Under the pieces are notes generated by a model. That model ran no database searches. It was not told where the DNA came from and worked only from the letters and a program-made list of their open reading frames with translations. Of a stretch of 50,429 nt of DNA, positions 1-47,231 are shown in pieces. Within the stretch, counting starts at the first letter, position 1. Every line of letters begins with the position of its first letter. A program made the position numbers and the translations under genes. Source of the stretch: a virus (taxonomy: Duplodnaviria; Heunggongvirae; Uroviricota; Caudoviricetes); the IMG/VR virus record IMGVR_UViG_2663763326_000008, positions 1 through 50,429 of that record; one strand, 5' to 3'.

Positions 1-1158
1 ATGCTCACCGTTAAGCAGATTGAAGCAGCAAAGCCGAAAGAAAAACCATACCGCCTACTCGATGGTAATGGCCTGTACCTTTATGTCCCTGTGTCAGGGA
101 AAAAGGTATGGCAGCTTCGCTACAAGATTGACGGTAAGGAGAAAATCCTGACCGTAGGAAAATATCCGCTAATGACTTTGCAGGAGGCAAGAGATAAAGC
201 ATGGACCGCGAGGAAAGACATCTCGGTTGGCATCGATCCGGTAAAAGCGAAAAAGGCTTCGTCTAACAACAATTCCTTTAGTGCCATTTACAAGGAATGG
301 TACGAGCACAAGAAGCAAGTCTGGTCAGTAGGCTATGCAACTGAACTTGCCAAAATGTTTGATGACGACATTTTACCCATCATCGGCGGTCTTGAGATTC
401 AGGATATTGAGCCGATGCAACTGCTGGAAGTAATCCGCAGATTTGAAGATCGCGGTGCAATGGAGCGAGCCAACAAAGCCCGCAGAAGATGCGGCGAGGT
501 TTTCCGTTACGCTATTGTCACCGGCAGGGCTAAATATAACCCGGCACCTGACCTTGCTGACGCCATGAATGGGTACCGCAAGAAGAACTTCCCGTTTCTT
601 CCTGCAGACCAGATCCCGGCATTCAATAAAGCACTGGCAACATTTTCAGGAAGTATCGTATCGCTCATTGCCACCAAGGTTTTACGCTACACTGCCCTAA
701 GAACGAAAGAGCTTCGTTCCATGCTATGGAAGAACGTCGATTTTGAAAACAGAATTATCACCATCGACGCCAATGTGATGAAGGGACGCAAAATTCATGT
801 GGTCCCGATGTCAGACCAGGTGGTTGAACTTCTCACTACGCTAAGCTCAATCACCAAACCAGTATCAGAGTTTGTTTTTGCCGGGCGCAACGATAAGAAG
901 AAGTCAATCTGCGAGAACGCGGTACTGCTTGTGATCAAACAAATCGGCTATGAAGGTCTGGAAAGCGGTCACGGATTCAGGCATGAATTCAGCACGATTA
1001 TGAACGAGCACGAATGGCCTGCTGACGCTATTGAAGTGCAACTGGCACATGCCAACGGCGGATCTGTGCGAGGGATTTACAACCATGCTCAGTATCTCGA
1101 TAAGCGCAGAGAAATGATGCAGTGGTGGGCGGACTGGATTGATGAAAAGGTGGAGTGA
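1..1158 (+). CDS. int: Tyrosine integrase, P4/CP4-57 type
   Basis: 385 aa; N-terminus MLTVKQIEAAKPKEKPY, catalytic region HGFRHEFST and C-terminal RGIYNHAQYLDKRREMMQWWADW resemble E. coli P4-family IntA as I recall it; window starts at its ATG. Confidence 0.9.
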   Translation: MLTVKQIEAAKPKEKPYRLLDGNGLYLYVPVSGKKVWQLRYKIDGKEKILTVGKYPLMTLQEARDKAWTARKDISVGIDPVKAKKASSNNNSFSAIYKEWYEHKKQVWSVGYATELAKMFDDDILPIIGGLEIQDIEPMQLLEVIRRFEDRGAMERANKARRRCGEVFRYAIVTGRAKYNPAPDLADAMNGYRKKNFPFLPADQIPAFNKALATFSGSIVSLIATKVLRYTALRTKELRSMLWKNVDFENRIITIDANVMKGRKIHVVPMSDQVVELLTTLSSITKPVSEFVFAGRNDKKKSICENAVLLVIKQIGYEGLESGHGFRHEFSTIMNEHEWPADAIEVQLAHANGGSVRGIYNHAQYLDKRREMMQWWADWIDEKVE

Positions 1159-1302: not shown

Positions 1303-3381
1303 TTACTTATTAACCCAACCTGTAGCATTTGTGTTGCTTTCCTTTATATAAAGTACTGTATTTCCACCTCCATCAGAACGAGTGTAAATAGAACCAACTG
1401 GTGCTCCAACTCCGCTAGATGTTGGGTTGCCTTCTTGCCCAAATATCACAAGTGAGCTTTTATCTGTAGCTTGATTATTCTGTGTGGCTGATGTTCCAAA
1501 TGAAACATTCCCTATAAATGACACGCTCTTACAGGTTGATGTAGCAAATATACCAACTGATGGTTTATTAGTTGCAATGCCATCACGAATTTGATTTGAA
1601 CTAACAATTACATTTTCTGCACCAGAGTCAATTCGTATACCATTATGGTTGTTATCTGCGGTAGAAACCCCAGCTATAATGTTTGATTGAATAGTAACAT
1701 TTGAATATTTACCATTAATATGAATCCCATGCAGGGAAATATTTCTAAAGATGTTGCTAGAAATTACAACATCATGCGAAAAACCAGACCCTATAAATTC
1801 TTCTGCATTGGTTTCAGAAATCCATAAAGAACTTGATGTTCCTGAATCGTATTCATTATTAGAGATGATTGATTTGTTAATAAAATCACCTTTGAAAAAA
1901 CCGATTCCGCCTCTTGCTGTGTTTCCAGTGACAGTTAGTCCTGAAACCCATCTTGCGTCTACTGCATATGATTGAGACTCTGTAATAAACATGGAATTGT
2001 TGGATATTACGATATCTTCATGAAATGCATCTGATGTATCTGTATATGGATATGTAGGTGCAGCAAGAAGAATCGGGGATCTAACGCCTTCAAAATAATT
2101 GCCAACAATGCGCCCCCTCCTTGCCCCCTGTGGTTTTGATGATGATGGGAATGGGGTTACATGAACTCCTCGCGCGGTACTGTTATAGAAAGAGCATCCG
2201 CTAACCACCCAATCATACCAGTTGAAAACCCTTACCCCGGCAAAGAGCATTCCATCGAACCTGCAGTTTATGACCCTTATATTTTTGTCCTGATTCCCAT
2301 ATGAATTAGCATGGTTCCCAACCCCCGCCCCCCACGCCCCAAACCCAGTGGTGGTATTTTGTGGATTTGAACCAAAATAACAGTTATCAACAAGAACATT
2401 GATGTTTGGGTAATAATCGCCAAGAGATTCAATCCCCGGATCTAACTGTATCGCTTCTGAATAATTTCGGTTGGAAAGTGGTTTGAAGCCAAGAAACTTA
2501 CAGTCTCTTATAATCACCCCTTGCCCGTCAGCAATATCTACAGCATGAAAATCGACTACATCAAGAAATGTTACTCCAACAATAGAAAGATTTCTTGGTG
2601 AGGAGGCCGCAATGATGTCAAAAGGATCTGTAGGGTGGTCTTGTCCTCCTCCATCTAGTATTCCGCCTGTTATTTTAATGTTAGTGCCAGTATTAGGGTT
2701 TATTCTCAGCATAACGTCATTAGAAAAATTACGTTTAATGGTTACGCCATCAGTCATCTTTAGGTGAGTATTTGATTTTATTTGCAACTCAGAAAGCAAA
2801 GTATATATGCCTGGTAGTGAAAACTGTAGTGTACCTCCTCCAATGCTATATATTGCATCTAGCGCAAATTGCAGAGCTACTTTATTGTCAGCATTCGATG
2901 GATGAGCACCGAAGTCAAGAACATCAATGATTTGTTGGTTCTTTTGGTGTTGAGTTTGATTTGCTGCTCCGGGGAATGGTTGTTTCACCGACACTAATTC
3001 ATCCCCATCACCATCATCAAAGGATGCCAACCTCTTCTGAAACTGATCAGGGTCATACTTCAGCACATTAGGAAAATAAAACTGCTGCGCACCACATGCA
3101 TCATAAACAGCCATAGAATGGCCTTGCACAGTTACGAATTTGGCAATCTGTCCGTTATATACTGGATACCCAGCGGCATTGATGACGATTGGCTGTGCAA
3201 CAGGAACGTGAGAACCATCTTCGTTATCAACATAGACCTGAATCTGGTTATCAGGATTTACCGGGTCAGTGTCAATTTTACCGATATAAATTTTGCCATT
3301 AGCTACGGCTTTAAAAGAACGCGCCATAGTGAAGAGTTGCGAAGGCATGCTCACTACAACATTGGCTGTAATGTCTGTCAT
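1303..3381 (-). CDS. Tailspike protein (P22 gp9-like N-terminal head-binding domain fused to a different receptor-binding domain)
   Basis: 692 aa; N-terminus [11 protein letters not shown]...[22 protein letters not shown]...[13 protein letters not shown]...NVLKYDPDQ closely matches P22 gp9 head-binding domain from memory; remainder diverges. Confidence 0.85.
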
Positions 3382-3481: not shown

Positions 3482-4405
3482 TCAGTAGTTATGTACTGAA
3501 GGAGGTAATTCTTTATTCTTAAGTCTCATCCATGCGGAAAGATTCGCTGGTCCGTCTGGCTCATTAATATCAACATCTCGTGTGTGGTTTATTAAAACGT
3601 CTCTCGCCATTCCGATAACATACGAGAATTCATGACCGTAGTCGTAGCATCTGCCGGAATAGTTCGATTGAATTTGTTTTAATGCCGGATACAGTTCGCG
3701 GAATAATGCCTGTGAACGGTTGGCATAATCCCATAACCATACAAGGCTGTTTGCTTCTTTTGCAGAAAGCTCGTCGGTTTTCTTCTCTTGTTTGCCAATG
3801 AACTCACCTTCAAGTGGAACTCGAGCTGCAAGTGACAGTGCTTCGGTAAACTGCTCCTCACTGATTTCTTTGTACGAACATCCAAAATGGGATTTCAGTG
3901 ACGACCACATGGTGATCATCGCCTTAGCCTGTTTTTCTTTTGGCAGAGACTGACCGCGACTCATGACGAGTTGTTTAATGGCTTCCTGCTGTTCAGTGGT
4001 GATTTTACCCGGCAACGCCTTTTTAACTTTGCGTGGGTTAACTACATGGCCTTTAGTCCAGTATTCGTAGAGCACATCGTCACACTCTTCCTGATACTGG
4101 ATTACCTTGTCGCGGATTTCAGGGCGGACTTTGTTAGGACTGATGCTGTTCAACCAAGCTGCCAATTTTCGTAAAGCCATACAAATCATGGCTTGCACCC
4201 CACCGGCAGAAGGTATGGTGATTTCCACCATACCCTTCGAGAAGCGTTGAGAAATCTTCTTATGTTGAGATTTCCAGTCTAGCCCCATTCCCTCAACGAT
4301 AGGTTTCATTGGGGTGTACGGCTCACCGTTGTGATTGACGACATAAAGCTCTGCGCCGTGGAATGGCACGTTGATAGTAGATACTGCTGTTGCTATACTT
4401 TTCAT
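3482..4405 (-). CDS. ant: Antirepressor (Ant-like)
   Basis: 307 aa; sits downstream of a small RHH gene and divergent from an Mnt-like gene, i.e. the P22 immI arrangement; size close to P22 Ant. Confidence 0.55.
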   Translation of the reverse strand: MKSIATAVSTINVPFHGAELYVVNHNGEPYTPMKPIVEGMGLDWKSQHKKISQRFSKGMVEITIPSAGGVQAMICMALRKLAAWLNSISPNKVRPEIRDKVIQYQEECDDVLYEYWTKGHVVNPRKVKKALPGKITTEQQEAIKQLVMSRGQSLPKEKQAKAMITMWSSLKSHFGCSYKEISEEQFTEALSLAARVPLEGEFIGKQEKKTDELSAKEANSLVWLWDYANRSQALFRELYPALKQIQSNYSGRCYDYGHEFSYVIGMARDVLINHTRDVDINEPDGPANLSAWMRLKNKELPPSVHNY

Positions 4406-4470
4406 GTCAGTTTTTCCTCAAAATTTACTGGCGATTTAAGCCCGAGCTACTCGCAATAGCTTGGGCTTTA
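4406..4470 (+). ncRNA. Candidate Sar-like antisense RNA / arc-ant intergenic hairpin
   Basis: Inverted repeat aagcccgagct..agcttgggctt (about 4438-4468) followed by ttta on + strand, antisense to the ant translation start; analogous in position to P22 sar. Confidence 0.25.
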
Positions 4471-4471
4471 C

Positions 4472-4618
4472 TCATTCTGGACAAACAATTCCATCCTTAG
4501 CTACTGACTCCTTTAGTCTCCTCAATACCTCATTACTGAACGACCGATCATCCTTTTTCGCGGACTGCTCCAAAGCCTTTTCTAGCCATTCTGGCATCCT
4601 TAATGTCTTAACTTTCAT
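4472..4618 (-). CDS. arc: Arc-like ribbon-helix-helix repressor (48 aa, not in ORF track)
   Basis: Hand translation MKVKTLRMPEWLEKALEQSAKKDDRSFSNEVLRRLKESVAKDGIVCPE; AAGGAG about 7 nt upstream of ATG; RHH-like pattern; directly upstream of ant. Confidence 0.55.
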   Translation of the reverse strand: MKVKTLRMPEWLEKALEQSAKKDDRSFSNEVLRRLKESVAKDGIVCPE

Positions 4619-4722
4619 TTTTGCTCCTTTGTATGTGGTACGCATACATAGTATTTAGGTACGCATTGATAGTCAATAGATACCTACATATCCTGTGGTA
4701 AAAAATTATTCAGGATGCGCCG
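4619..4722. promoter_or_regulatory. Divergent promoter/operator region between arc-like and mnt-like genes
   Basis: 104-bp AT-rich spacer with repeated ggtacgcat motifs and imperfect palindromes (tgtatg..cataca; attgatagtcaat). Confidence 0.45.
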
Positions 4723-4974
4723 ATGTCTGATCGTAAGTACAAAAACCCTCAAGTGAATCTGAGGCTTCCTGTAGAGATAAAGGAACGTCTTATTGAGCTG
4801 GCTGAGGCTAATTCTCGTTCATTAAATGCTGAGATGGTCGCGGCACTTGAAGCGTGGACCGAAAAAAATAAACACATTCAAGCACTAGACCTTGCAACTA
4901 TAGCATCACGATTGATAGATCTTGAACGCGATGTTGAGACGCTAAAGACCATGTATGGTAAGGATGAAAAATGA
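4723..4974 (+). CDS. mnt: Mnt-like ribbon-helix-helix repressor
   Basis: 83 aa; PQVNLRLPVEIKERLIELAEANSRSLNAEMVAALE resembles P22 Mnt/Arc N-terminal RHH (..RAEANGRSMNSE..) from memory; divergent from arc-ant. Confidence 0.75.
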   Translation: MSDRKYKNPQVNLRLPVEIKERLIELAEANSRSLNAEMVAALEAWTEKNKHIQALDLATIASRLIDLERDVETLKTMYGKDEK

Positions 4975-5336
4975 GTGACAATTCAGGATACTCAGACGAT
5001 CAACTGCGAGAGGCTGAATATCGCAAGGCGCTATCGTCTATAACTACAAAGGTTCTCGACTCTTTCTTGAGAGCTAAAGGTGTTCCAGACGAATGCCCAA
5101 TGTGCGGGCAGTCTGAAATGGTTGTCCCTCAAGTTCAATTTGTAAATCAGGATAATGGAAAAGACATCATGGGTAGGCATGCCCATTATGGTGAATATAT
5201 AAAAAACGAAGATGAATCATTCAACCCAATAAATTACTCTTATCATGTAATTTGCAAGCATTGCGGATACATTATGCAGTACAACACAGGTGTTGTGTTA
5301 AGCTGGTATCTAAGGGAGAAAAACAGCAATGTCTAA
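4971..5336 (+). CDS. Hypothetical protein with two CxxC pairs (zinc-ribbon-like)
   Basis: 121 aa; CPMCG...CKHCG; start overlaps mnt stop (ATGA). Confidence 0.5.
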   Translation: MSDNSGYSDDQLREAEYRKALSSITTKVLDSFLRAKGVPDECPMCGQSEMVVPQVQFVNQDNGKDIMGRHAHYGEYIKNEDESFNPINYSYHVICKHCGYIMQYNTGVVLSWYLREKNSNV

Positions 5337-5664
5337 GTTGAAGTTGGCTTACGATGCTGACAATCCTTTTCCGAATAGCGAATTTGCCCCCATCGGAATT
5401 GAAGACTCAGAAGAGCCAGCACATGGAGGTGGCAATGGAGGAGGATCAGATATGAACAGTAGAATGACCCGCATTGAAACGATTGCCGCCAACCAAGAAA
5501 AGCTAATATCAGAAACTAGAAAAGAGTTGATTGGCATCCGTGGCGACATGCACGGAATGGAGCGTCGCCTAGCAGATAAGATGGACGAGAATCAGAAGTG
5601 GCTTATCGCCCTCATGATATCTGCAATCCTTGCTCCGCTGTTTATTGCCTTGGTTACCAAATAG
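5329..5664 (+). CDS. Hypothetical C-terminally membrane-anchored protein
   Basis: 111 aa; Gly-rich linker then hydrophobic C-terminus WLIALMISAILAPLFIALV; overlaps previous gene. Confidence 0.5.
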   Translation: MSKLKLAYDADNPFPNSEFAPIGIEDSEEPAHGGGNGGGSDMNSRMTRIETIAANQEKLISETRKELIGIRGDMHGMERRLADKMDENQKWLIALMISAILAPLFIALVTK

Positions 5665-5685
5665 CTACTAACTAAGGAGATTTGT

Positions 5686-6009
5686 GTGTATACAACAGTT
5701 ATCGTGATAGCTATCGCACTCATTGTGGTTCAGTACCAACTGGCATCTTTAAAACAAAAGATATCTGACCTCAAGACTGAGAACGAAGCACTTAAAAGCT
5801 CAATAAAAGATGAGAAGAACAAACTATCATTCACTATATCTGATATTGAGCAATCCATTGAAATTATTGAGAATAATATTAACAGACTAAAAAAAGAAGA
5901 TATTCATGAAATCAATGACAATATCAAGGATTTGAAATCTTGGCTTAGGAATGTAGGACAAATCGCCACATCAACACGAGATAAGCTCAATCCATCCATG
6001 GATGATTAA
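5686..6009 (+). CDS. Hypothetical membrane/coiled-coil protein
   Basis: 107 aa; N-terminal hydrophobic segment YTTVIVIAIALIVV then heptad-like charged repeats; RBS aaggag upstream. Confidence 0.5.
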   Translation: MYTTVIVIAIALIVVQYQLASLKQKISDLKTENEALKSSIKDEKNKLSFTISDIEQSIEIIENNINRLKKEDIHEINDNIKDLKSWLRNVGQIATSTRDKLNPSMDD

Positions 6010-8136
6010 TTACTCCTGTGCTATTCCGCTTAGCGACGCTACAATGCCAGCCCTCGCTAAGCGATTGAACTCTTCGTTTCCAACTGCATCACGTATTGCT
6101 TTTACGGCGGCTTTATTTGCCATAAATCTGCGTTCCGCCGCCGCTAATGCTTCTTTACTTCCGCCAGCTCTTACTGCTTTCGTGGCTTCCTGAACTGCTT
6201 TCTCTATCGCATATCGACCGCTACGCGTGGTGGCAATTTTAGATACAGCACCTTTTAACCCGGCGCCAACTAAAGCACCCGCGGCAGCGCCTGCAATACC
6301 CCCTCCAGCGCCACCAACAATGGCACCTGATGTTGAGTTGGCAATTGCATTTAACACTGTTGATGTGACGTTGGATAAACCAGCATCCAGATCGCGTAGT
6401 ACATTGGCAGTTCTCCCTGTTCTTTCAATATACTGCTGAGGTTTCACTGCCGCTCTTGCAAGAGTGCCATATGCATCAGCAATTCTTCCGAGATCTGAGG
6501 AATATCTGCTAATGGCTTTTACATTTTGTGGGGTAAGTATCCCTGCGATATGGTTAATTCCTGCTGCATCAGCTTTGCCACCACGTACACCATGCGAGAT
6601 AGCATCTTGCAACATTGATGATATAGCAGGAACACGCTCTGATTCTGGCAGCGCGCGGATCATAGAATGGAACCCAGCAGGACCATTAAGACCTTTAGCT
6701 GACGATGATTGAAGGGATTTTACTCCATTCGTAATCAGTGCATCTGTTGCCAAATCACGCCCGAAAACAGACTCTGCACTCTCTTGTGCTGATAACCTCG
6801 CTTTAGACAGATCATTAGCTTTCTGCCAGTCATCAAGAAATCCGCCGTTTTCCGCCATTGTGCGCATATCATCAGTAATTGCCCGGCGTATTTCCCCTGC
6901 TCTCCTTGCCGCATTTGCCTCTCCGCTACGCTTATATTTTTGCTCCGCATCAGCAAATTTCGCTCTCCATGCTTTCATGCCATCAAATGTTACTCCACCT
7001 TGATTGTTTGCCTGAACAAACTGTTTCATTTCAGGAGTAAGTGGTATGCCAGCAGATCGCTCTGCCTGAATAACGGCATTACCATTTAGCATTCTTGCTT
7101 TTTGATTTGGCATTGTTGACCGCACGTCATCCCATGCCGCGCGCTCGGCATCCTTCATCTGATCAAGATTTTGAAGAATCCTTTGTTTTATAGCCGCACT
7201 TTTTTCTGATGCCGTTCCAGATGCGGCCCCAAATTCATCAAGGTTTCGACTTAACTTTGATGATATTTCGTTAAATGCTGCCTGATGGGCGTCCTGAACA
7301 ATTCCTGGTGTTGATGCCAATGCGCCTTCAGCTTGTGCAATTCCACGACTTCCAGATCGCATTCCTGGTGTTAATGCGTTTATATCAATTCCAGCAGACT
7401 CAGCCGCTTTTGCTACATCTTCGGACACATTAGCGGCCTGACTGGCAATTGACCGACGCCCAGCACCTGACTTTGCCATCCTGGAAACATCATTAGCAGA
7501 ATTCAGTGCTGCACCACCAAGAGCCTGTGAAACCCTTGGCGCAATAACGCGCCCGACACCTGAAAGAACGCCTTGAGCACCAATATTGATACCACCGTTA
7601 ATGGCAGCATTTTGTGCAAAGTCGCCCTCCTGATTTGCAGCATCAGCAAGAGAACCTGCAATCATGTTTCCTGCGGAACCGATATCTCCAGCGAGCTTTG
7701 CTGGCGCTCCAGCAGCTTTTGCCGCTGTGCCAATTGGCAGGAGATACCCACCAATTGTTTCACCGGCTTGCGCGTAAGGGTCTGTCGGTCGATCGACTGG
7801 ACGATAGACATCATCCAATACTTTTGGCCCACCAAGCCCCTGACTGATTGCATTAATCAGACTTGCGCCACCCTGCAATACGTCAAATGGTATGTTTACC
7901 AGACCACGACCAGCCTGTTCTGCAATTTGCCCTGCACTTTGACCACCAGTGAGCCAATCGCCAGCTTGTTGCATCAATGATGGTTCTTCACGTGCTTGTT
8001 CATTATTGGCCTGATTAACTGTTTGTTGCTGAACAGCCTGACCAGCAAAATACTCATCAATGGCGGTGCCAATATCTTCGGTGCTCGTACCATCAGGAAA
8101 GGTAAATGTCTTACCGTTTGCAGTTACTTTCATCAT
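6010..8136 (-). CDS. Ejection (injection) protein, P22 gp16-position
   Basis: 708 aa Ala/Gly-rich protein, last gene of the P22-like late operon before immI; synteny-based. Confidence 0.55.
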
Positions 8137-9464
8137 TCCACCGTAAATTGAATGCCTGATTTTGAGGTATATGATCCGGATTGACTCTGCTGCTGTTGGG
8201 TATTTGTCGGTTGTTGGTTATTGCTCTGTTGTTGTGCAGGCTGCTGAATATCTTCATACAGCTTGGCTTTTCTGGATTGCAATTGCTTAGTTAGTCCGCT
8301 GGGGAGAGAATCTCCATAAGTTGAAAGATAATCATCCATTTGCTGATTAAACTTTTGGCCTTCAGTATTTGCCATCAGTTTTGAGGTGTTGATTAAGTCC
8401 TGGACTTGCTCATTATTCAGCATCTTGCCGTTAGATAATTGGCTAACATAGTTACCAAGTGTGCCGAATATTCCATCAGTGCGTTTTACCTGCACTTGCT
8501 CACCTTCGCGTACCACAGATTGCGGATCCAGCGATTTCATATAGTTGAAAATCATTCCCAACTGCGCGGCTGGAGTGTTGCGCTTCCCAAGGGCTTGTAG
8601 GTTGTCAGAAGCACTGCGCATTGCAGAATAATTCTTTGAGAACCCATTAATATCACTATTCAGATCTCGAACAAGTTTTGGGTCAATCTTTCCGCTTTCC
8701 TGTTGTTTCATCCCTAATTCCTGCAACTTCAGGGCTACGTTATCATTATGCATTTGTGCCCGCTGAGCCCTGTCTAGTTGAGCGTTCTGGATATTTGCCC
8801 ATCCTCTCGCATTCTCCATATCAGCCTGACGGATGCTTTCATCCAATCGCCCTTTCTCTAGTTGGCGACCAACCATCTTATCCTGATAATCCAGCATTTT
8901 ATCCGGACCAACAGCCCCTAGCGTCATAGTAGTCAGCATGTGTGATAGCTGCTCTGGATTCTGGATACCTGTCTGAATCATCCAGTCAGCATTAGCACCA
9001 ACGCGATTTAACCTGTCCTTGTTGTCAGTAATGAATTTACTGTAGGCTTCCGGTCCCTGAGAAAGAGCGACGTTAGCCCTCATGGCTAAATCGCCCATAT
9101 CGTTGCGTTGCTGCTCATTAAGACCGGAAAACGCCTGTTGTGCCTGCGCAACAAACGCTGGATTTTCCTGGGCAAACTTAAATAGTCCCGATGGATCACC
9201 AGAAGCCCATGCATCAGCGTGAACCTTATTGAACGCACTAATAGCTTTCTGTTGCTGTTCCTGATTGTAAATATCAGCAACTCCAGCCAGACCACGTAAC
9301 GCGGTCAGACCAACGTTATTTGCACCTGAGCGAGCCAGTTCATTGTTTTCGCGGATCAGACCAAGCGTTGCGTTAATGTCGCTTGCCTTTGGCGCATTCT
9401 CATTTTGCGTACCGATGCCAGCCAGAAAACCACCAGAATTAATACCCTGTTGCCACGTAGCCAT
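8133..9464 (-). CDS. Ejection protein, P22 gp20-position
   Basis: 443 aa, Gln/Asn-rich; synteny between gp7-like and gp16-like genes. Confidence 0.55.
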
Positions 9465-9551: not shown

Positions 9552-10166
9552 CTATGCCACCCCCAAAAGCGCACCGGATGCAGCACCACTAACCCCCTGC
9601 TGCAATGCTGACGGTCGGTTGGCGTTTGCCGCAGCCAGCGCCGCGCTTTGCTGTGAAATCTGACTCATGTTGTTGGCATATGTTTGCCCGGCGTTTGCCT
9701 GCCCCTGAAGAGCGCCAAGACCAATATTTGCCAGGTTGTTGTAATTGTTCATCTGACCAGATAGCCATTGCTGACCAAGCGTTGGTGCGATTGTTGCTAA
9801 CTGATTACTGGTTGCGGTGGAACCTAATCCACCTGTTGCTTCCGCTGCCGCCAGACTCTGATAGCGAGCCTGACCAGCAAGATCTTTGTACTGCTGAGAG
9901 TTGTAATACTGGTTAAGCGCCTGACCTTGCCCCTCCAGAGACGATAAGTTCTCGAGGCTGCCGACATACTTATCAGCCAGAGGAGTAAACGGCTTCAGGT
10001 TGTTCATGATGGTGTTGAACTGCTGATTTTGCAGGTCTGCGGCATACTTCTGGGCTTCTGCGGCATACTTTGCACTTTTATCAGAACTGCCACCTTTCCC
10101 GCCTTTTTCAGGGCAATAAGGTTCCTCACCGCGCAGTTTTCTGCCCAGTTTAAATGCATATAACAT
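9552..10166 (-). CDS. Ejection protein, P22 gp7-position (possibly frameshifted at 3' end)
   Basis: 204 aa; 87-nt gap to next gene contains an ATG-less frame encoding a Gly-zipper hydrophobic tail after a C6/A4 homopolymer. Confidence 0.5.
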   Translation of the reverse strand: MLYAFKLGRKLRGEEPYCPEKGGKGGSSDKSAKYAAEAQKYAADLQNQQFNTIMNNLKPFTPLADKYVGSLENLSSLEGQGQALNQYYNSQQYKDLAGQARYQSLAAAEATGGLGSTATSNQLATIAPTLGQQWLSGQMNNYNNLANIGLGALQGQANAGQTYANNMSQISQQSAALAAANANRPSALQQGVSGAASGALLGVA

Positions 10167-20425: not shown

Positions 20426-20893
20426 TCATCGAAGGCATTGCGTCCTGATGTATTCCTGAAGCGTTCTCAGTGCTGTTTGGTCGCGGATAATTCCGTCCCG
20501 GACACCGAGAACGTTTCGTCCAGCAACTGGAGAGAGTTCGACGGTGGCATCATTGCCCATGCCGGAGGCGCCGGAGGTTTCGGCTGAGGATGGCACAGGG
20601 CATTTTCCTTTGACGAGCACCCTGCCACCATTATCAAGCTTGCGACGAAGAGCATCATTTTCAGCTTTCGCATCAGCTAACTCCTTCGTGTATTTAGCAT
20701 CGAGTACATCAGCAGCACGCTGGCGTTGCTGCATGTCAGTAATGGTGGCGGTCGCCTGCTTCAGCTCACTGACTTTTTTATCTCGCTGCTCTTTGTAGGC
20801 GATGGCGTTATCACGGTAATGATTAACAGCCCATAACAGGCAGACGATGATGCAGATAACCAGAGCGGAGATAATCGCGGTGACTCTGCTCAT
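20426..20893 (-). CDS. Rz: i-spanin Rz
   Basis: 155 aa; N-terminal TM then coiled coil; resembles lambda Rz from memory; follows endolysin. Confidence 0.85.
20467..20673 (-). CDS. Rz1: o-spanin Rz1 (embedded in Rz, alternate frame)
   Basis: Lipobox VAGC, proline-rich PKPPAPPAW, embedded within Rz as in lambda. Confidence 0.65.
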
Positions 20894-21366
20894 ACCTCAA
20901 TCTCTCTGACCGTTCCGCCTGCTTCTTTGAATTTTGCAATCAGGCTGTCAACCTTATGCTCGAACTGACCATAACCAGCGCCCGGCAGTGAAGCCCAGAT
21001 ATTGCTGCAACGGTCGATTGCCTGACGGATATCACCGCGATCAATCATCGGCAAAGCGCCACGTTCCTTAATCTGCTGCAGCGCAACAGCGTCCTGGCTT
21101 TTGGGAGAGAAGTCTTTCAGGCCAAGTTGCTTGCGGTAGGCATCCCACCAACGGGAAAGAAGCTGGTAACGTCCGGCGGCTGTTGATTTGAGTTTGGGGT
21201 TTAGCGTGACAAGTTTGCGAGGGTGATCGGAGTAATCAGTGAATAGCTCTCCGCCTACAATGACGTCATAACCATGATTTCTGGTTTTCTGCCGTCCGTT
21301 ATCAGTTCCCTCTGACCACGCCAGCATATCGAGGAACGCCTTACGTTGATTATTGATTTCCACCAT
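20890..21366 (-). CDS. R: Endolysin, lambda R-type lytic transglycosylase
   Basis: 158 aa; [49 protein letters not shown] matches lambda R from memory. Confidence 0.9.
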
Positions 21367-21673
21367 CTTCTACTCCGGCTTTTTTAGCAGCGAAGCGTTT
21401 GATAAGCGAACCAATCGAGTCAGTACCGATGTAGCCGATGAACACGCTCGTTATATAAGCGAGATTGCTACTTAGTCCGGCGAAGTCGAGAAGGTCACGA
21501 ATGAACCAGGCGATAATGGCGCACATCGTTGCGTCGATTACTGTTTTTGTAAACGCACCGCCATTATATCTGCCGCGAAGGTACGCCATTGCAAACGCAA
21601 GGATTGCCCCGATGCCTTGTTCCTTTGCCGCGAGAATGGCGGCTAACAGGTCATGTTTTTCTGGCATCTTCAT
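21350..21673 (-). CDS. S: Holin, lambda S-type
   Basis: 107 aa; [35 protein letters not shown] with dual-start motif, as lambda S107/S105. Confidence 0.9.
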
Positions 21674-40052: not shown

Positions 40053-40300
40053 AATAGCGGGTAAAATATTTTTCACATCTAAAAAACACCATTCCAATCA
40101 ATCCCCTGCCGCCTCAAGTAGATGTCTGCAGGGGACACCATGAACACTTCTCACTAAGTTCAATTAATTCCATAACTCACTGTTTTAACTGATATCATCT
40201 CCTTATACTCGTCCAGCAAAGTACCATTATTTCTAATGGAATCTATACATCTTTGCGTATAACATTGTGTATAACTGAGTTCGATCTTTTTTCTATACAC

Positions 40301-41476
40301 ATGCTGCTATCTGACATCCAAATAAAAAGAGCAAAACCGAAGGACAAACCCTATACGCTTAACGATGGTATGGGGCTATCACTCCTGATCGACACAGCGG
40401 GCAGTAAAGGCTGGCGTTTTCGCTATCGCTTTGCAGGTAAGCCTAAGATGATTTCCTTTGGCGTATATGGCGATGTGTCGTTGGCACAGGCACGTACCAA
40501 ACGTGATGAAGCGCGTTCGATGTTAGCCAACGGGATAAACCCAAGTGAAGCCAGAAAAGCAGATAAGATTGCTTTGCAGTTCGCGCATGAGAACAGCTTT
40601 GAGTCTGTGGCCAGAGAATGGCACTCATCGAAAAAAGCCACCTGGTCAGAGGGTTATGCAAAAGAGGTTCTCAATTGTATGGAAAAGGATATTTTTCCTT
40701 TTATCGGCCAGCGCCCAATTGAGCAGATTGAACCATTAGAACTGCTAACCGTCCTGCAAAAAATAGAGAAAAGAGGTGCGCTAGAGCAAACCAGTAAGAT
40801 CCGCCGCCGCTGTGGTGAAGTGCTTCGTTATGCTGTTGCCACTGGTAGAGCAAAGTATAATTTTGCACCCGATTTAGCTATCGCACTCAACAAACCTAAA
40901 ACCCAACACTTCCCGTTCCTGACTGAAAGCGAGTTGCCCGAGTTCGTTAATGCTCTGGATAACTATCAGGGCAGTTTAGTTACCAAATACGCCACGCAGC
41001 TGTTGATGCTAACAGGCGTGCGAACAATTGAACTACGTGCAGCGGAATGGGCTGAGTTTGATTTAGATAATGCCTTATGGGAGATCCCCAAAGAACGGAT
41101 GAAGAAACGCCGCCCCCATCTGGTTCCGTTATCAACTCAGGCGATCAATATCCTGAAAAAGCTGCAAGAAATAACAGGGAATTACAGCCTCGTTTTCCCT
41201 GGCCGGAATGACGTCAGTAAACCAATGAGCGAAGCCAGCATCAACAAAGTGATAAAACTACTGGGTTATCACGGTCGGTTAACGGGTCACGGTTTCAGGC
41301 ATACCATGAGCACCATCTTGCATGAGCATGGGTTTGAAAGTGCCTGGATTGAAATGCAGCTTGCGCATGTTGATAAGAACTCTATTCGAGGTACTTACAA
41401 TCATGCGCAATATATTAAAGATCGACAAGTAATGATGGAATGGTACGCTAGCTTATTAAATACGACCTGCTATTAA
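40301..41476 (+). CDS. int: Tyrosine integrase, P4/CP4-57 type (paralog of 1..1158)
   Basis: Start taken at MLLSDIQIKRAKPKDKPY; shares RRRCGEV.RYA..TGRAKYN.APDLA and HGFRH motifs with the first integrase. Confidence 0.9.
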   Translation: MLLSDIQIKRAKPKDKPYTLNDGMGLSLLIDTAGSKGWRFRYRFAGKPKMISFGVYGDVSLAQARTKRDEARSMLANGINPSEARKADKIALQFAHENSFESVAREWHSSKKATWSEGYAKEVLNCMEKDIFPFIGQRPIEQIEPLELLTVLQKIEKRGALEQTSKIRRRCGEVLRYAVATGRAKYNFAPDLAIALNKPKTQHFPFLTESELPEFVNALDNYQGSLVTKYATQLLMLTGVRTIELRAAEWAEFDLDNALWEIPKERMKKRRPHLVPLSTQAINILKKLQEITGNYSLVFPGRNDVSKPMSEASINKVIKLLGYHGRLTGHGFRHTMSTILHEHGFESAWIEMQLAHVDKNSIRGTYNHAQYIKDRQVMMEWYASLLNTTCY

Positions 41477-44543: not shown

Positions 44544-47231
44544 TCACTCAGGTTCAGCGCTTCCCAGTACCTGTGTATTGAACTGGTACACACGTTTAAG
44601 CCCTATTTCTGGCAGGCGAATGCTGTTTTGCGTCCGGCCATCTTCACCGGGTTTCAGCCAGCCCGCGTCCACACACAACCTGGCCACCTTACGCGAGTCA
44701 AATCCCTTACAGATCTCCTTCCAGCCTGACGGGAGAACGTAGAACGTCACAACCGGCTCTGTCACGTTGTCTCCTTTATCGACTTTTCTGAATCCCATCA
44801 TTGAAACAGGCCGGTTCCTGTCGTCATTCCAGTCAGCAAACCGACTGAACTGATTACGCGTCATGAAGTCCCGAACCTGTTCAAGTGCCGCTTTATCTTC
44901 CTGATTAGCTGTATGGCCCCGGTCAGCCATCCATGCAGCCAGACAGCTTTGAGCGGCACGAAAGGCCTCTCCCTCCGGCCATCCTGTGATGCCCGCTTTT
45001 GTGGCCAGCTCCCCGGCCATCGCAACCAGAGCAAAACGGGTAACAGCCCGGCCAACCTGATTCCCGGCATTTTCCGGCGTCAGCCTTCGGGTATACTCTT
45101 TCAATAAGGCTTTCGCCTGACTGGTCAGTTCCGGCAGATCAGCGGTCAGGCAATACAGCCAGTCGCGGAATGGTGCACCATGATAATGCGCTACGTGCTG
45201 CTCAAGATGCTCAGCCAGGGTTTTCCCGCTACTGAAGCCATGAAGTTCTTCAAACACGCCATACTTGCCCGAATCGCTTGGGATCTGGATCATTCTGACC
45301 TCAACCCCGGCATACGTACGTTCCCCGGCGCTTGCCGCATGCTCTACCAGTGACAGTTCCCCGGTAGACAGAAACAACAGATTCCAGCGGTTGGTTTCCC
45401 TTACCGAACCATCTGTTCTGGCTCTGGCTTTGCCCTGCCCGTTAGCCAGCATATAAGCGATATTTCCCGCCTCCCTGCCGTCAACCTCCCGGATTTCATC
45501 CAGCATCAGCGTGGCATCATTGCGGCGGCTCGCCGTTCCTTCTAAGGCATTCCCCGTCGCCCGCCACGTATGCCAGAAATCTGTTCCACCACATACTGAT
45601 GCAGCCACTTTCATCGTCGTGGTTTTACCGTCTGTGGATTCCCCTTTGAGGTGATAACCTCCACCGCCGATACCAACCAGTTTCAGAAGGGGGGCAGCAA
45701 ATGCCAGACTCACCGCAAAGGCAAGACGGGCATTCTTTATGCAATAACGGCCTATATTTTCACGCCAGCCCTCTGATGTGCCGCTGACACGAAAATCACG
45801 CCCCTGCACACTCGATGTTTGTAAGATGACTGACTGGGCTTCGCGCCCTATCACTTCATCCTGGAGAACGTAAACCCCGCCGTGCCAGCCAGTTTTATTC
45901 ACACAGGTTACTTTTCTGTCCGGTTTACACAGCGAGATATATTCCATCAGGAATGCTCTGGCCATGCCGTTAATGTTGATGTAAGAAAGCCCGTTAACCA
46001 GCAGAACGCGGCGCAGTTCTTCCCCGCTACCGCCCAGCATCTCCATCGGCATTGCCCATTTACGGCTGTTTCCGTTGGTATCTTCCCATTCCAGCAAACG
46101 CCCGTAATTACTTCCATCAGCATCACTGGTGATTGCCGTCACCCGCAACGGACTGCAAATTTTGATATTACGTATCTCTGTATCACCATCAGACTTATTA
46201 ACCAGCTTGTCGTACCACAAATATTCTTTTGTCAGCCGGAACCCTTCTGGTAAACGGGTCTGCCCTTTGCCATGCAGCGTCATTTCTTCACGAAAGGCAT
46301 CTCTCGCCCGTTCTTTCCCCACTTCCTGCCGATAATCATCCCAGTCAGCCTTATGGCGTACCGGAGGGAGCGTTACCCAGCCATCCACCGCTTTGGCGGC
46401 TTTCTCTGCCTGAATACGCCCGGTGTTTTCTTTGCCGTCAGCCAGATCATTATCTCCGGCCAGAATGATCCGGGTTTCCGGCCAGCGTTTTCGGATCTGC
46501 TCCGTCACCTTCAGTAAATTGGTGGCAGCGACAGCCGCCACGATCCATCCTTCAGTCAGCAGACTGACGGTAAGCGCCGTGGCAAAACCCTCAGTGATAA
46601 TCACCTGTTCAGGTGTTTCAGCGGGTATATCGGTCAGGGCAATGAATGCGCCAGACAGCTGGCTACCGGGCAGCAGACTTTTATCCCCGTCAGGATTGAT
46701 AAGCTGGCCACCAGTAATATTCCCGGAAATATCCGTCAAAGGCAGCAGTAATGAACCGGTGGAAAATGTTATTCCGGCCAGATTCAAAGGCTGTGACAGC
46801 AAGGGAAGTGAATACCCGTGTAAGCTCTTATTTGTCAGATAGACCGGCTCACCATTGCAGGACTGCTGTCTGAGTCTGGTATATCGCTCCGCGCCCGCTT
46901 CTTTTCCTGCGGCCTTTTTCCTGGCTGGCAATGCGGGCTTCTCCTGTATTTCTGGTAATGCAAGCGCCTCAGATACCATCCCGGCGACTTCTTTTATCTT
47001 TCTTCCTGTCACCAGACGAACCAGATCAAGACCATCGCCATGACCGCACTGATTACAAAACCACGTCCCTCGCCCCGCTTTATCGTCCAGTCGAAAACGA
47101 TCTTTTCCACCACAGGCAGGGCAAGCCCCATGATGTCCTGCGGACGGTACTTTAATACCTAATGCTGACAGGATATAAGGCCAGCGCCCAATTGCAGCTC
47201 CGGAAATCGTGGATACAGACGGTGTTTTCAC
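44544..47231 (-). CDS. Primase-helicase (P4 alpha-like replication protein)
   Basis: 895 aa; N-terminal zinc-ribbon CPACGGKDRFRLDD...WFCNQCGHGDG, central toprim-like region, Walker A GESTDGKTT. Confidence 0.85.
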   Translation of the reverse strand: MKTPSVSTISGAAIGRWPYILSALGIKVPSAGHHGACPACGGKDRFRLDDKAGRGTWFCNQCGHGDGLDLVRLVTGRKIKEVAGMVSEALALPEIQEKPALPARKKAAGKEAGAERYTRLRQQSCNGEPVYLTNKSLHGYSLPLLSQPLNLAGITFSTGSLLLPLTDISGNITGGQLINPDGDKSLLPGSQLSGAFIALTDIPAETPEQVIITEGFATALTVSLLTEGWIVAAVAATNLLKVTEQIRKRWPETRIILAGDNDLADGKENTGRIQAEKAAKAVDGWVTLPPVRHKADWDDYRQEVGKERARDAFREEMTLHGKGQTRLPEGFRLTKEYLWYDKLVNKSDGDTEIRNIKICSPLRVTAITSDADGSNYGRLLEWEDTNGNSRKWAMPMEMLGGSGEELRRVLLVNGLSYININGMARAFLMEYISLCKPDRKVTCVNKTGWHGGVYVLQDEVIGREAQSVILQTSSVQGRDFRVSGTSEGWRENIGRYCIKNARLAFAVSLAFAAPLLKLVGIGGGGYHLKGESTDGKTTTMKVAASVCGGTDFWHTWRATGNALEGTASRRNDATLMLDEIREVDGREAGNIAYMLANGQGKARARTDGSVRETNRWNLLFLSTGELSLVEHAASAGERTYAGVEVRMIQIPSDSGKYGVFEELHGFSSGKTLAEHLEQHVAHYHGAPFRDWLYCLTADLPELTSQAKALLKEYTRRLTPENAGNQVGRAVTRFALVAMAGELATKAGITGWPEGEAFRAAQSCLAAWMADRGHTANQEDKAALEQVRDFMTRNQFSRFADWNDDRNRPVSMMGFRKVDKGDNVTEPVVTFYVLPSGWKEICKGFDSRKVARLCVDAGWLKPGEDGRTQNSIRLPEIGLKRVYQFNTQVLGSAEPE

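Follow-up and report, generated by a model that had tools for sequence, protein, structure and literature searches.

IMG/VR virus record IMGVR_UViG_2663763326_000008, a 50,429-nucleotide (nt) stretch analysed here at its full length and referred to as the window, is a P22-like (Lederbergvirus-type) Escherichia coli prophage in which three small open reading frames (ORF1, ORF2 and ORF3) follow a homologue of the repressor gene mnt. A preliminary description of this region had placed the three genes behind mnt on its strand, at coordinates that proved exact against the sequence and the ORF list, and had taken their products for a zinc-ribbon protein, a C-terminally anchored membrane protein and an N-terminally anchored coiled-coil membrane protein, in agreement with the Cys pairs of the first and with hydrophobic helices at residues 90-110 and 2-22 of the other two. 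Its treatment of the trio as one unit does not hold. ORF1 and ORF2 occur together in 10 of 5426 complete E. coli genomes (~0.2%) and the third gene, hkcB, in up to 165 of them, and we read the trio as two independent modules: the ORF1-ORF2 cassette (4971-5664), a mobile, closely linked pair that is uncharacterised, and hkcB, which is an already catalogued orphan (Table 1).

Table 1. Coordinates of the two modules, their control signals and the surrounding prophage genes in the window.
Feature	Position	Strand	Evidence or remark
ORF1, 121 aa, predicted cytoplasmic four-Cys zinc-ribbon protein, uncharacterised family	4971-5336	+	phrog_4293, E 3.6e-31
ORF2, 111 aa, predicted tail-anchored inner-membrane coiled-coil protein	5329-5664	+	phrog_6324, E 6e-30
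Putative internal ribosome-binding site GGAGGAGGA in the Gly run of ORF2, with in-frame ATG 5452-5454 (Met42)	5437-5454	+	
ORF3 = HkcB (HK620 hkcB, epsilon34 gp14), 107 aa, GTG start	5686-6009	+	phrog_5962
Stop-to-stop junction TAA/TTA, hkcB against gene 16	6004-6015	.	zero intergenic bases
mnt homologue, 83-aa ribbon-helix-helix repressor, operon gene 1	4723-4974	+	Pfam Arc, E 3e-10
Pmnt-like promoter, TTGATA-17-TATCCT	4666-4694	+	promoter scan; layout as annotated Pmnt/Pant of P22
Pant-like site, divergent, overlapping the Pmnt-like site	4676-4648	-	promoter scan
arc homologue	4472-4645	-	57-aa open frame from first ATG
sar-like antisense RNA, between arc and ant	4406-4472	+	RF00262, full-length match, 29.3 bits, E 0.0044, below the gathering score of 43
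ant	3482-4405	-	
Tailspike gene	1303-3381	-	
Gene 16 homologue (ejection / 'DNA transfer' protein), 708 aa	6010-8136	-	phrog_770, E 1e-232
Gene 20	8133-9464	-	ejection block
Gene 7	9552-10166	-	ejection block
Canonical holin-endolysin-spanin cassette	20426-21673		15 kb from ORF1-ORF2

All three ORFs are under purifying selection and are real genes. Pairwise ratios of nonsynonymous to synonymous substitution rates (dN/dS) against diverged homologues were 0.04-0.05 for ORF1, 0.08-0.10 for the whole of ORF2 and 0.2-0.3 for ORF3; within ORF2, the conserved C-terminal 70 residues gave 0.03-0.07 and the N-terminal 41 residues 0.16-0.38. The stretch 4650-6100 was found in nine complete E. coli genomes at 99.7-100% identity, and in identical prophages RefSeq annotates all three ORFs as coding sequences for hypothetical proteins. 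No homology of the trio to virion or housekeeping proteins was found.

ORF1 fits the traits of phrog_4293, whose members are about 100-180 aa long, with a C-terminal Trp and two CxxC pairs. Its Cys pairs, C42/C45 and C95/C98, and W112 are invariant in 30 homologues, the protein has no hydrophobic segment, and a profile search of 1.84 billion representatives returned 59 clusters. An AlphaFold model built from the 30-sequence alignment (predicted local distance difference test score, pLDDT, of 92) places a zinc-ribbon sheet between two helices at the N-terminus and one at the C-terminus, and this modelled fold, which has no solved relative, would be a novel one. A likeness to the MqsA zinc domain, the best PDB match of an earlier model built from six sequences (pLDDT 69), was discarded as noise (E 0.09). 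Membership of the Lar family was also rejected (TIGR03655, 17.7 bits against a cut-off of 39.6; Pfam PF14354, E 0.56).

In ORF2, a variable acidic N-terminal extension leads into a Gly run ending in D-M, which is followed by a coiled coil and a C-terminal transmembrane (TM) helix. The core of 70 residues is strongly conserved, and the TM helix ends in ...FIALVTK, with a single residue after the hydrophobic segment. The Gly run also carries a putative internal ribosome-binding site and an in-frame start codon. All 15 distinct nucleotide variants have GGAGG or GAGGA 4-7 nt upstream of this internal start; the adjacent Gly codons vary. Short-only ORF2-type genes start at the equivalent of Met42 and, in those of loci L086 and L087, a stop codon lies within the former Gly run with GAGGA and ATG kept. 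GGAGG and ATG are also retained in the remote partners of distant ORF1 homologues (L095 and L097), with an in-frame GTG instead in L099. Because the ribosome-binding motif and the in-frame start codon are conserved where nearby Gly codons are not, ORF2 is probably made as two forms, one of 111 aa that is coupled to the termination of ORF1 and one of 70 aa.

Dual starts are typical of holin/antiholin genes, and SPP1 gp24.1/24.1* is itself a dual-start gene (PMC6316719). Further likenesses link ORF2 to SPP1 gp24.1 and to XhlA of PBSX: all three are small and combine a coiled coil on the N-terminal side with a lone TM helix at the C-terminus, and all carry a juxtamembrane (D/S)K-x-x-EN-x-x-W motif. 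ORF2 also matches phrog_689 'holin' (E 1e-5), many of its homologues at 60-75% identity have a precomputed match to the Pfam XhlA family (PF10779), and close relatives are named 'hemolysin XhlA family protein' by NCBI. These weak similarities could be taken to mean that ORF2, acting with the resident holin, adjusts when lysis occurs, as an XhlA/gp24.1-type holin accessory or, in its long isoform, as an antiholin, with ORF1 as its regulator. Copies in siphoviral prophages that run parallel to the late operon would suit such a role, and transcription of the mnt side of the P22 immI region is also active late in infection. We nevertheless consider a lysis function very unlikely. XhlA is encoded alongside an XhlB-type holin and an endolysin in a lysis cassette, and lysis requires it together with them (PMC5589764, PMC6316719), whereas ORF2 belongs to a repressor operon or a tail moron of Gram-negative prophages. 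Its neighbours in the window are mnt, ORF1 and hkcB, and at 80 ORF2-like loci they are repressor, antirepressor or tail genes, with no lysis cassette. The canonical holin-endolysin-spanin cassette of this phage sits elsewhere, and ORF2 was rejected as its main holin. The operons that carry the pair are lysogenic, with mnt or an S24 repressor gene in front of it, and in P22-like phages late transcription is antisense through ORF1-ORF2. In addition, the rarity of the pair in E. coli and its absence from related P22-like phages indicate that it is dispensable for lysis.

The genes upstream of the pair form a complete immI-type "ant moron" (ant, arc, sar-like RNA and mnt). The product of the mnt homologue matches phrog_795 (E 2e-26), which also matches the annotated mnt of P22 and epsilon34, and is 32% identical to P22 Mnt (E 1e-7). 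Gene spacing from mnt to ORF3 is operon-like: the ATG of ORF1 overlaps the mnt stop as ATGA, which suggests translational coupling, ORF1 and ORF2 overlap by 8 nt, and the GTG start of ORF3, preceded by AAGGAG, lies 21 nt past the end of ORF2. A promoter scan detected no + strand promoter-like site downstream of 4400 other than the Pmnt-like one. The single + strand terminator-like site in 4974-6009 lies inside ORF2 (5343-5361) and has six pairs, three of them G-C, and the tail AATCCTTTTC; it was not accepted as a terminator as it is too weak. With no convincing terminator in the operon and no other + strand promoter-like site, a single mnt-ORF1-ORF2-hkcB transcript from the Pmnt-like promoter is inferred. 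Two repeats extend across the overlapping divergent promoter-like sites and are candidate Arc and Mnt operators: a direct repeat of 21 nt (4637-4657 and 4658-4678, 76% identical) and an imperfect palindrome of 18 nt (4652-4669/4673-4690). Their sequences differ from those of the P22 operators. A TG-extended promoter-like site (4371-4399, + strand) lies inside the start of ant, as it does in P22. The Pfam Arc domain covers residues 15-54 of the 57-aa form of the arc homologue, for which RefSeq has merely a 41-aa 'hypothetical protein' in an identical prophage.

To place the cassette in a wider context, we compared its surroundings across ORF2-like loci, which come mostly from IMG/VR prophage contigs with many near-duplicates (a genome-contig scan gave two loci). 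On this basis, an ORF1 homologue, a gene that gene callers often overlook, lies directly upstream of the ORF2-like gene at 54 of the 80 loci. Remote ORF1 homologues (~25-30% identity) were read in six further, unrelated backgrounds. Five of these (L093/94, L095/96, L097/98, L099) encode, a few bases downstream, a tail-anchored coiled-coil partner with a Gly run and D-M/V, and the partner in L092 has the same Gly run and D-M/V signature on a contig that ends inside the hydrophobic stretch. As this partner is present even where sequence search no longer recognises it, ORF1 seems to depend on an ORF2-type protein. ORF2-type genes, by comparison, can stand alone, mostly as short forms of 66-79 aa. 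In the siphoviral locus L024 (5230-6213), three genes run antiparallel to the tail genes: a mnt-like gene, one for an unrelated 135-aa protein with no Pfam match and a long-form homologue of ORF2 whose core is 89% identical. The 135-aa protein replaces ORF1 here, and the upstream partner of ORF2 is thus evidently exchangeable. The cassette is likewise found in other company, with a different third gene in strain E200086 and, on IMG/VR contigs L021 and L022, at 84% identity behind a mnt that aligns at 39-40%.

The pair spans three temperate architectures, namely P22-like repressor operons, P2/186-like repressor operons and the tail morons of lambdoid siphoviruses. Two arrangements were seen in P22-like prophages. 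The first, that of the window, reads Ant(-) Arc(-) Mnt(+) ORF1(+) ORF2(+) [HkcB(+)] gp16(-), and the second consists of a gene for a 151-aa protein(+), an ORF2-like gene(+), a SieA homologue(+) and gp16(-). The 151-aa protein, which precedes the ORF2-like gene in L083-L088, has an N-terminus that looks ribbon-helix-helix (RHH)-like by eye, outside the family-model search. In P2/186-like prophages the pair is flanked by the S24 repressor gene and int, all in the same direction. For example, L095 (2266-4876) and L096 have an S24 repressor gene, an ORF1-like gene, a gene for a 95-aa tail-anchored partner (GGNDNGGGNDM) and an integrase gene on the same strand, a run that faces Ogr/Delta and CP76 genes. 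The pair is therefore wired repeatedly behind a lysogeny repressor, from two unrelated repressor families (mnt and S24).

Siphoviral (lambdoid) copies occur in Klebsiella, Salmonella, Citrobacter and relatives, including phages SPN3UB and ST101-KPC2phi6.1. Their slot is a moron island that runs from a DUF6246 tail-chaperone-like gene to the tape-measure gene, usually with KilA-N, Ant or Mnt-like genes before the copy and a variable lipoprotein gene and a terminator after it, and the pair was also found between tail genes gpI and gpJ. In promoter and terminator scans of the siphoviral loci, the one signal obtained was a terminator immediately ahead of the tape-measure gene. In L011 (6300-7120), L008 (6200-7560) and related loci, a short junction downstream of the ORF2-like gene leads into a variable gene for a lipoprotein or secreted protein, which is followed by a strong terminator just before the tape-measure gene. 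This junction reads ...SATI[AG]AS[FL]TDGDRDM in one frame in five of the loci read (L011, L028, L043, L045 and L058) and looks like a cassette-exchange boundary.

Mnt, Arc, Ant or KilA-N genes constantly accompany these genes in podoviral as well as siphoviral prophages, which could also mean that the trio serves another lysogenic-conversion or regulatory purpose, such as envelope stress, host physiology or control of the Ant antirepressor circuit. Morons are functionally very diverse (PMC3594210). Moreover, locus L059 has an immI module 67-69% identical to that of the window, with its ORF2-like gene just downstream of ant rather than of mnt, and the chromosomal surroundings of one ORF1-partner pair appear not to be those of a phage. 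Against this, no DNA-binding or enzymatic domain was detected in ORF1-3 (Pfam, NCBIfam), membrane anchors in two of the three proteins would be unusual for components of a transcription circuit, and the link to ant modules may stem from nothing more than common sites of moron insertion. We regard a role of this kind as decidedly unlikely.

The second module is more familiar. HkcB has been without an assigned function since 2001, and the HK620 and epsilon34 genome papers already list it as an ant-moron gene (PMC2629481). ORF3 matches phrog_5962 over residues 1-107 (E 1.9e-58) and is 98% identical to epsilon34 gp14, 96% to its CUS-3 counterpart, 93% to that of SEN22 and 54% to HK620 HkcB. It shares with this family its 107-109 aa length, its junction and its place in the ant moron, and is joined here to the mnt operon. 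Its N-terminal hydrophobic helix is followed by a heptad-rich coiled coil and, in the family alignment, the most conserved part is the C-terminal tail, W-x-x-NVG-x-x-A-x-S-x-x-DK. The G+C content of the gene is 33.6%, against 46.6% for the window.

As the preliminary description had stated, the stop codon of ORF3 (TAA, 6007-6009) abuts that of the convergent 708-aa ejection gene (6010-6012), giving TAATTA. The same zero-spacer junction was found in eight other loci (HK620, epsilon34, SEN22, CUS-3, E. coli ET734, a Leclercia prophage and Salmonella contigs), and it is kept in the Leclercia and Salmonella prophages at an HkcB identity of 53-61%, while the genes between hkcB and mnt differ in every case compared. 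Matches across the junction account for the up to 165 E. coli genomes given above, at least one of which (H123) stops short, and 72 of the 165 cover at least 80% of the query. In HK620-type E. coli matches, the 3' part of hkcB and the 3' end of gene 16 form one block. hkcB is thus fixed to gene 16, with the 3' end of gene 16 travelling with it. The epsilon34 match to the window begins at 5670, 16 nt before the start of hkcB, which marks the module boundary. In HK620, epsilon34, SEN22 and Leclercia, hkcB follows a divergent or unrelated gene at a distance of 30-141 nt. In CUS-3 it is joined to the mnt operon as it is in the window, at 22 nt behind an unrelated gene, compared with the 21 nt behind ORF2. 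The wider spacing suggests that hkcB may have a promoter of its own in most phages. No such promoter is apparent in the window, where the epsilon34 homology reaches only 16 nt upstream of the start and the scan shows no promoter-like site.

In its build HkcB is like HK97 gp15, a small protein that spans the inner membrane once, carries a helical tail, is expressed from the prophage and blocks DNA entry (PMC3594210). In both, a short neutral or acidic N-terminus is followed by a TM helix, basic residues and a helical tail, although BLASTP of gp15 (YebO-like) against 16 HkcB family members gave only E >= 12. HK97 gene 15, the first-named moron, occupies the tail chaperone/tape-measure slot (PMC3594210), which is also the slot of the ORF2 family in siphoviral prophages. 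gp15 is nonetheless the product of a single gene and has 62 aa. ORF2 differs from it in having its anchor at the other end, the C-terminus, and, as a rule, a zinc-ribbon partner.

The position of the trio in the window invites comparison with SieA. In P22-like phages, the stretch that separates the ejection-protein genes from the tailspike gene is variable and known for fast turnover (PMC2629481), and it is there that SieA was discovered. The preliminary description had spoken of a sieA-equivalent slot and this is borne out: the prophage-expressed sieA of P22, which has its own promoter, is separated from gene 16 by 22 nt and shares the strand of mnt, and the trio lies between gene 16 and gene 9 on that same strand. 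One or more of the three proteins might therefore be a functional equivalent of SieA that sits in the inner membrane and prevents the gp7/gp20/gp16 conduit of incoming P22-like phages from assembling or functioning, so that no DNA enters. The attachment of hkcB to the 3' end of gene 16 fits this proposal, as the mutations by which phages escape SieA lie towards the C-termini of gp16 and gp20 (PMC10883804), and so does the gp15-like build of HkcB. HkcB and type-A SieA are also mutually exclusive among sequenced phages: 8 HkcB records (5 distinct sequenced phages) and 41 SieA records share none, the latter retrieved with a P22 SieA query that returned only near-identical type-A (P22-type) proteins. 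This non-overlap fits alternative occupancy of the gene-16-proximal slot.

Nevertheless, the homology to SieA that the preliminary description had proposed to look for is absent. The best BLASTP match of ORF1, ORF2 or ORF3 to P22 SieA has an E value of 1.3, placing all three above 1, and none of the three translations contains FxRYPxEAxxFNK, the conserved cytoplasmic motif of SieA, a protein with several TM helices (PMC10883804). SieA proteins of types A-C are multi-pass and 164-204 aa long, whereas ORF2 and HkcB are single-pass and ORF1 is soluble. In addition, at loci L087 and L088 (5475-7367) the 151-aa protein with the RHH-like N-terminus, a 73-aa ORF2-like protein and a SieA homologue of 204 aa are encoded by genes that share a strand and converge on gene 16. 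The 204-aa protein of L087 matches P22 SieA (BLASTP, E 8e-8), has a RYPGEA motif and is type-B-like, and the presence of an ORF2-like gene directly before a true SieA homologue implies that ORF2 is not simply a SieA substitute. It is hard to see what a cytoplasmic ORF1 would do in a pure injection block, the soluble domains of the trio are predicted to be cytoplasmic while the conduit assembles in the periplasm, and HkcB has no sequence similarity to gp15. Functional equivalence to SieA is hence unlikely.

Our best guess, drawn from genomic context and protein architecture and held at somewhat less than even confidence, is that the two modules provide lysogen-expressed inner-membrane functions against superinfecting phages. 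The region would be "ant moron" cargo, comprising two unrelated accessory modules read from the Pmnt-like promoter, with a transcript that would be made in the lysogen and also, like that of P22 mnt, late in infection, and that in P22-like phages would be opposed by antisense late transcription. ORF2 is predicted to be N-in and tail-anchored and HkcB, from the basic residues after its anchor, to be N-out and C-in, which would put both coiled coils on the cytoplasmic face together with soluble ORF1. HkcB may be a small exclusion-type protein, like HK97 gp15 or SieA, that acts on the incoming ejection-protein channel. Superinfection exclusion is a reasonable proposal overall, and appears best supported for HkcB by its gp15-like build and its exclusivity with type-A SieA.

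For ORF1-ORF2, the same reading envisages a two-part system in which a cytoplasmic partner is joined to an XhlA-like, holin-related membrane effector. XhlA and gp24.1 are holin components that are reported to be harmless alone (PMC6316719). The effector would likewise be harmless alone and would be controlled by ORF1 and the long isoform. It is conceivable, if doubtful, that the pair represents a widespread and undescribed two-gene prophage system, a Rex-like abortive-infection or exclusion device. In such a device, the long and short forms of ORF2 would act as inhibitor and effector, respectively, and ORF1 as a trigger or brake. The order of repressor, soluble protein and membrane protein in lambda cI-rexA-rexB is that of mnt/S24-ORF1-ORF2, with the three on one transcript, an organisational analogy only; RexB crosses the membrane four times, and RexA is a much larger protein.

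A number of results weigh against the proposed role in defence at the inner membrane. ORF2 scores 20.7 bits against Pfam XhlA, where the gathering cut-off is 34.7, with only residues 83-103 aligned, and alignment of its family with SPP1 gp24.1 (hhalign) reached a probability of 12% over the juxtamembrane motif only. With a score below the Pfam threshold and a gp24.1 alignment limited to that motif, ORF2 is best described as XhlA-like, at the edge of the XhlA family, and not as a member. Membrane topology was predicted from hydropathy and the positive-inside rule only. None of ORF1-3 has a curated Pfam or NCBIfam assignment above cut-off, the weaker hits being zinc-ribbon and coiled-coil noise, and none has a meaningful match to a known defence system: in PADLOC-DB 2.0, ORF2 and mnt gave zero matches, ORF1 a lone weak match to Cas10 (E 0.012, 12.5 bits) and ORF3 weak matches only, over the coiled-coil segment (E >= 5e-4). 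No Rex model was among these weak matches of the trio, the presence of Rex models in PADLOC being unchecked. An ORF1 homologue is absent at 26 of the 80 ORF2-like loci. Most siphoviral copies of the ORF2 family have the same direction as ant and the late tail genes and, because they run with the late operon, lysogen-specific expression is not family-wide. The co-occurrence of an ORF2-like gene with SieA argues against a redundant injection block, while the exclusivity of HkcB and SieA is confounded by linkage to different gene-16 types and host genera.

Elsewhere in the prophage, the gene 16 homologue is the last gene of the ejection-protein block. Two tyrosine integrase genes are present, one at 1-1158 (+) directly outside the tailspike gene and the other at 40253-41476 (+) at the far prophage end. 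A DUF927/Toprim/zinc-ribbon primase-like gene (44544-47231, - strand) lies beyond the second integrase, and this arrangement suggests a neighbouring integrated element or satellite.

The region belongs with the small membrane-protein morons of temperate phages, and should neither module exclude or abort phages, it would be ordinary moron cargo. ORF1-ORF2 is noteworthy for its predicted novel zinc-ribbon fold, its apparently obligate pairing, its conserved putative dual start and its repressor-operon wiring. Together with hkcB, it provides two compact, cloneable candidates, of 0.7 and 0.3 kb, for prophage-encoded protection at the inner membrane. If either does exclude or abort phages, this would add a new protein family beside SieA, HK97 gp15 and Rex, and would offer a handle on how ejection and tape-measure proteins cross the cytoplasmic membrane.

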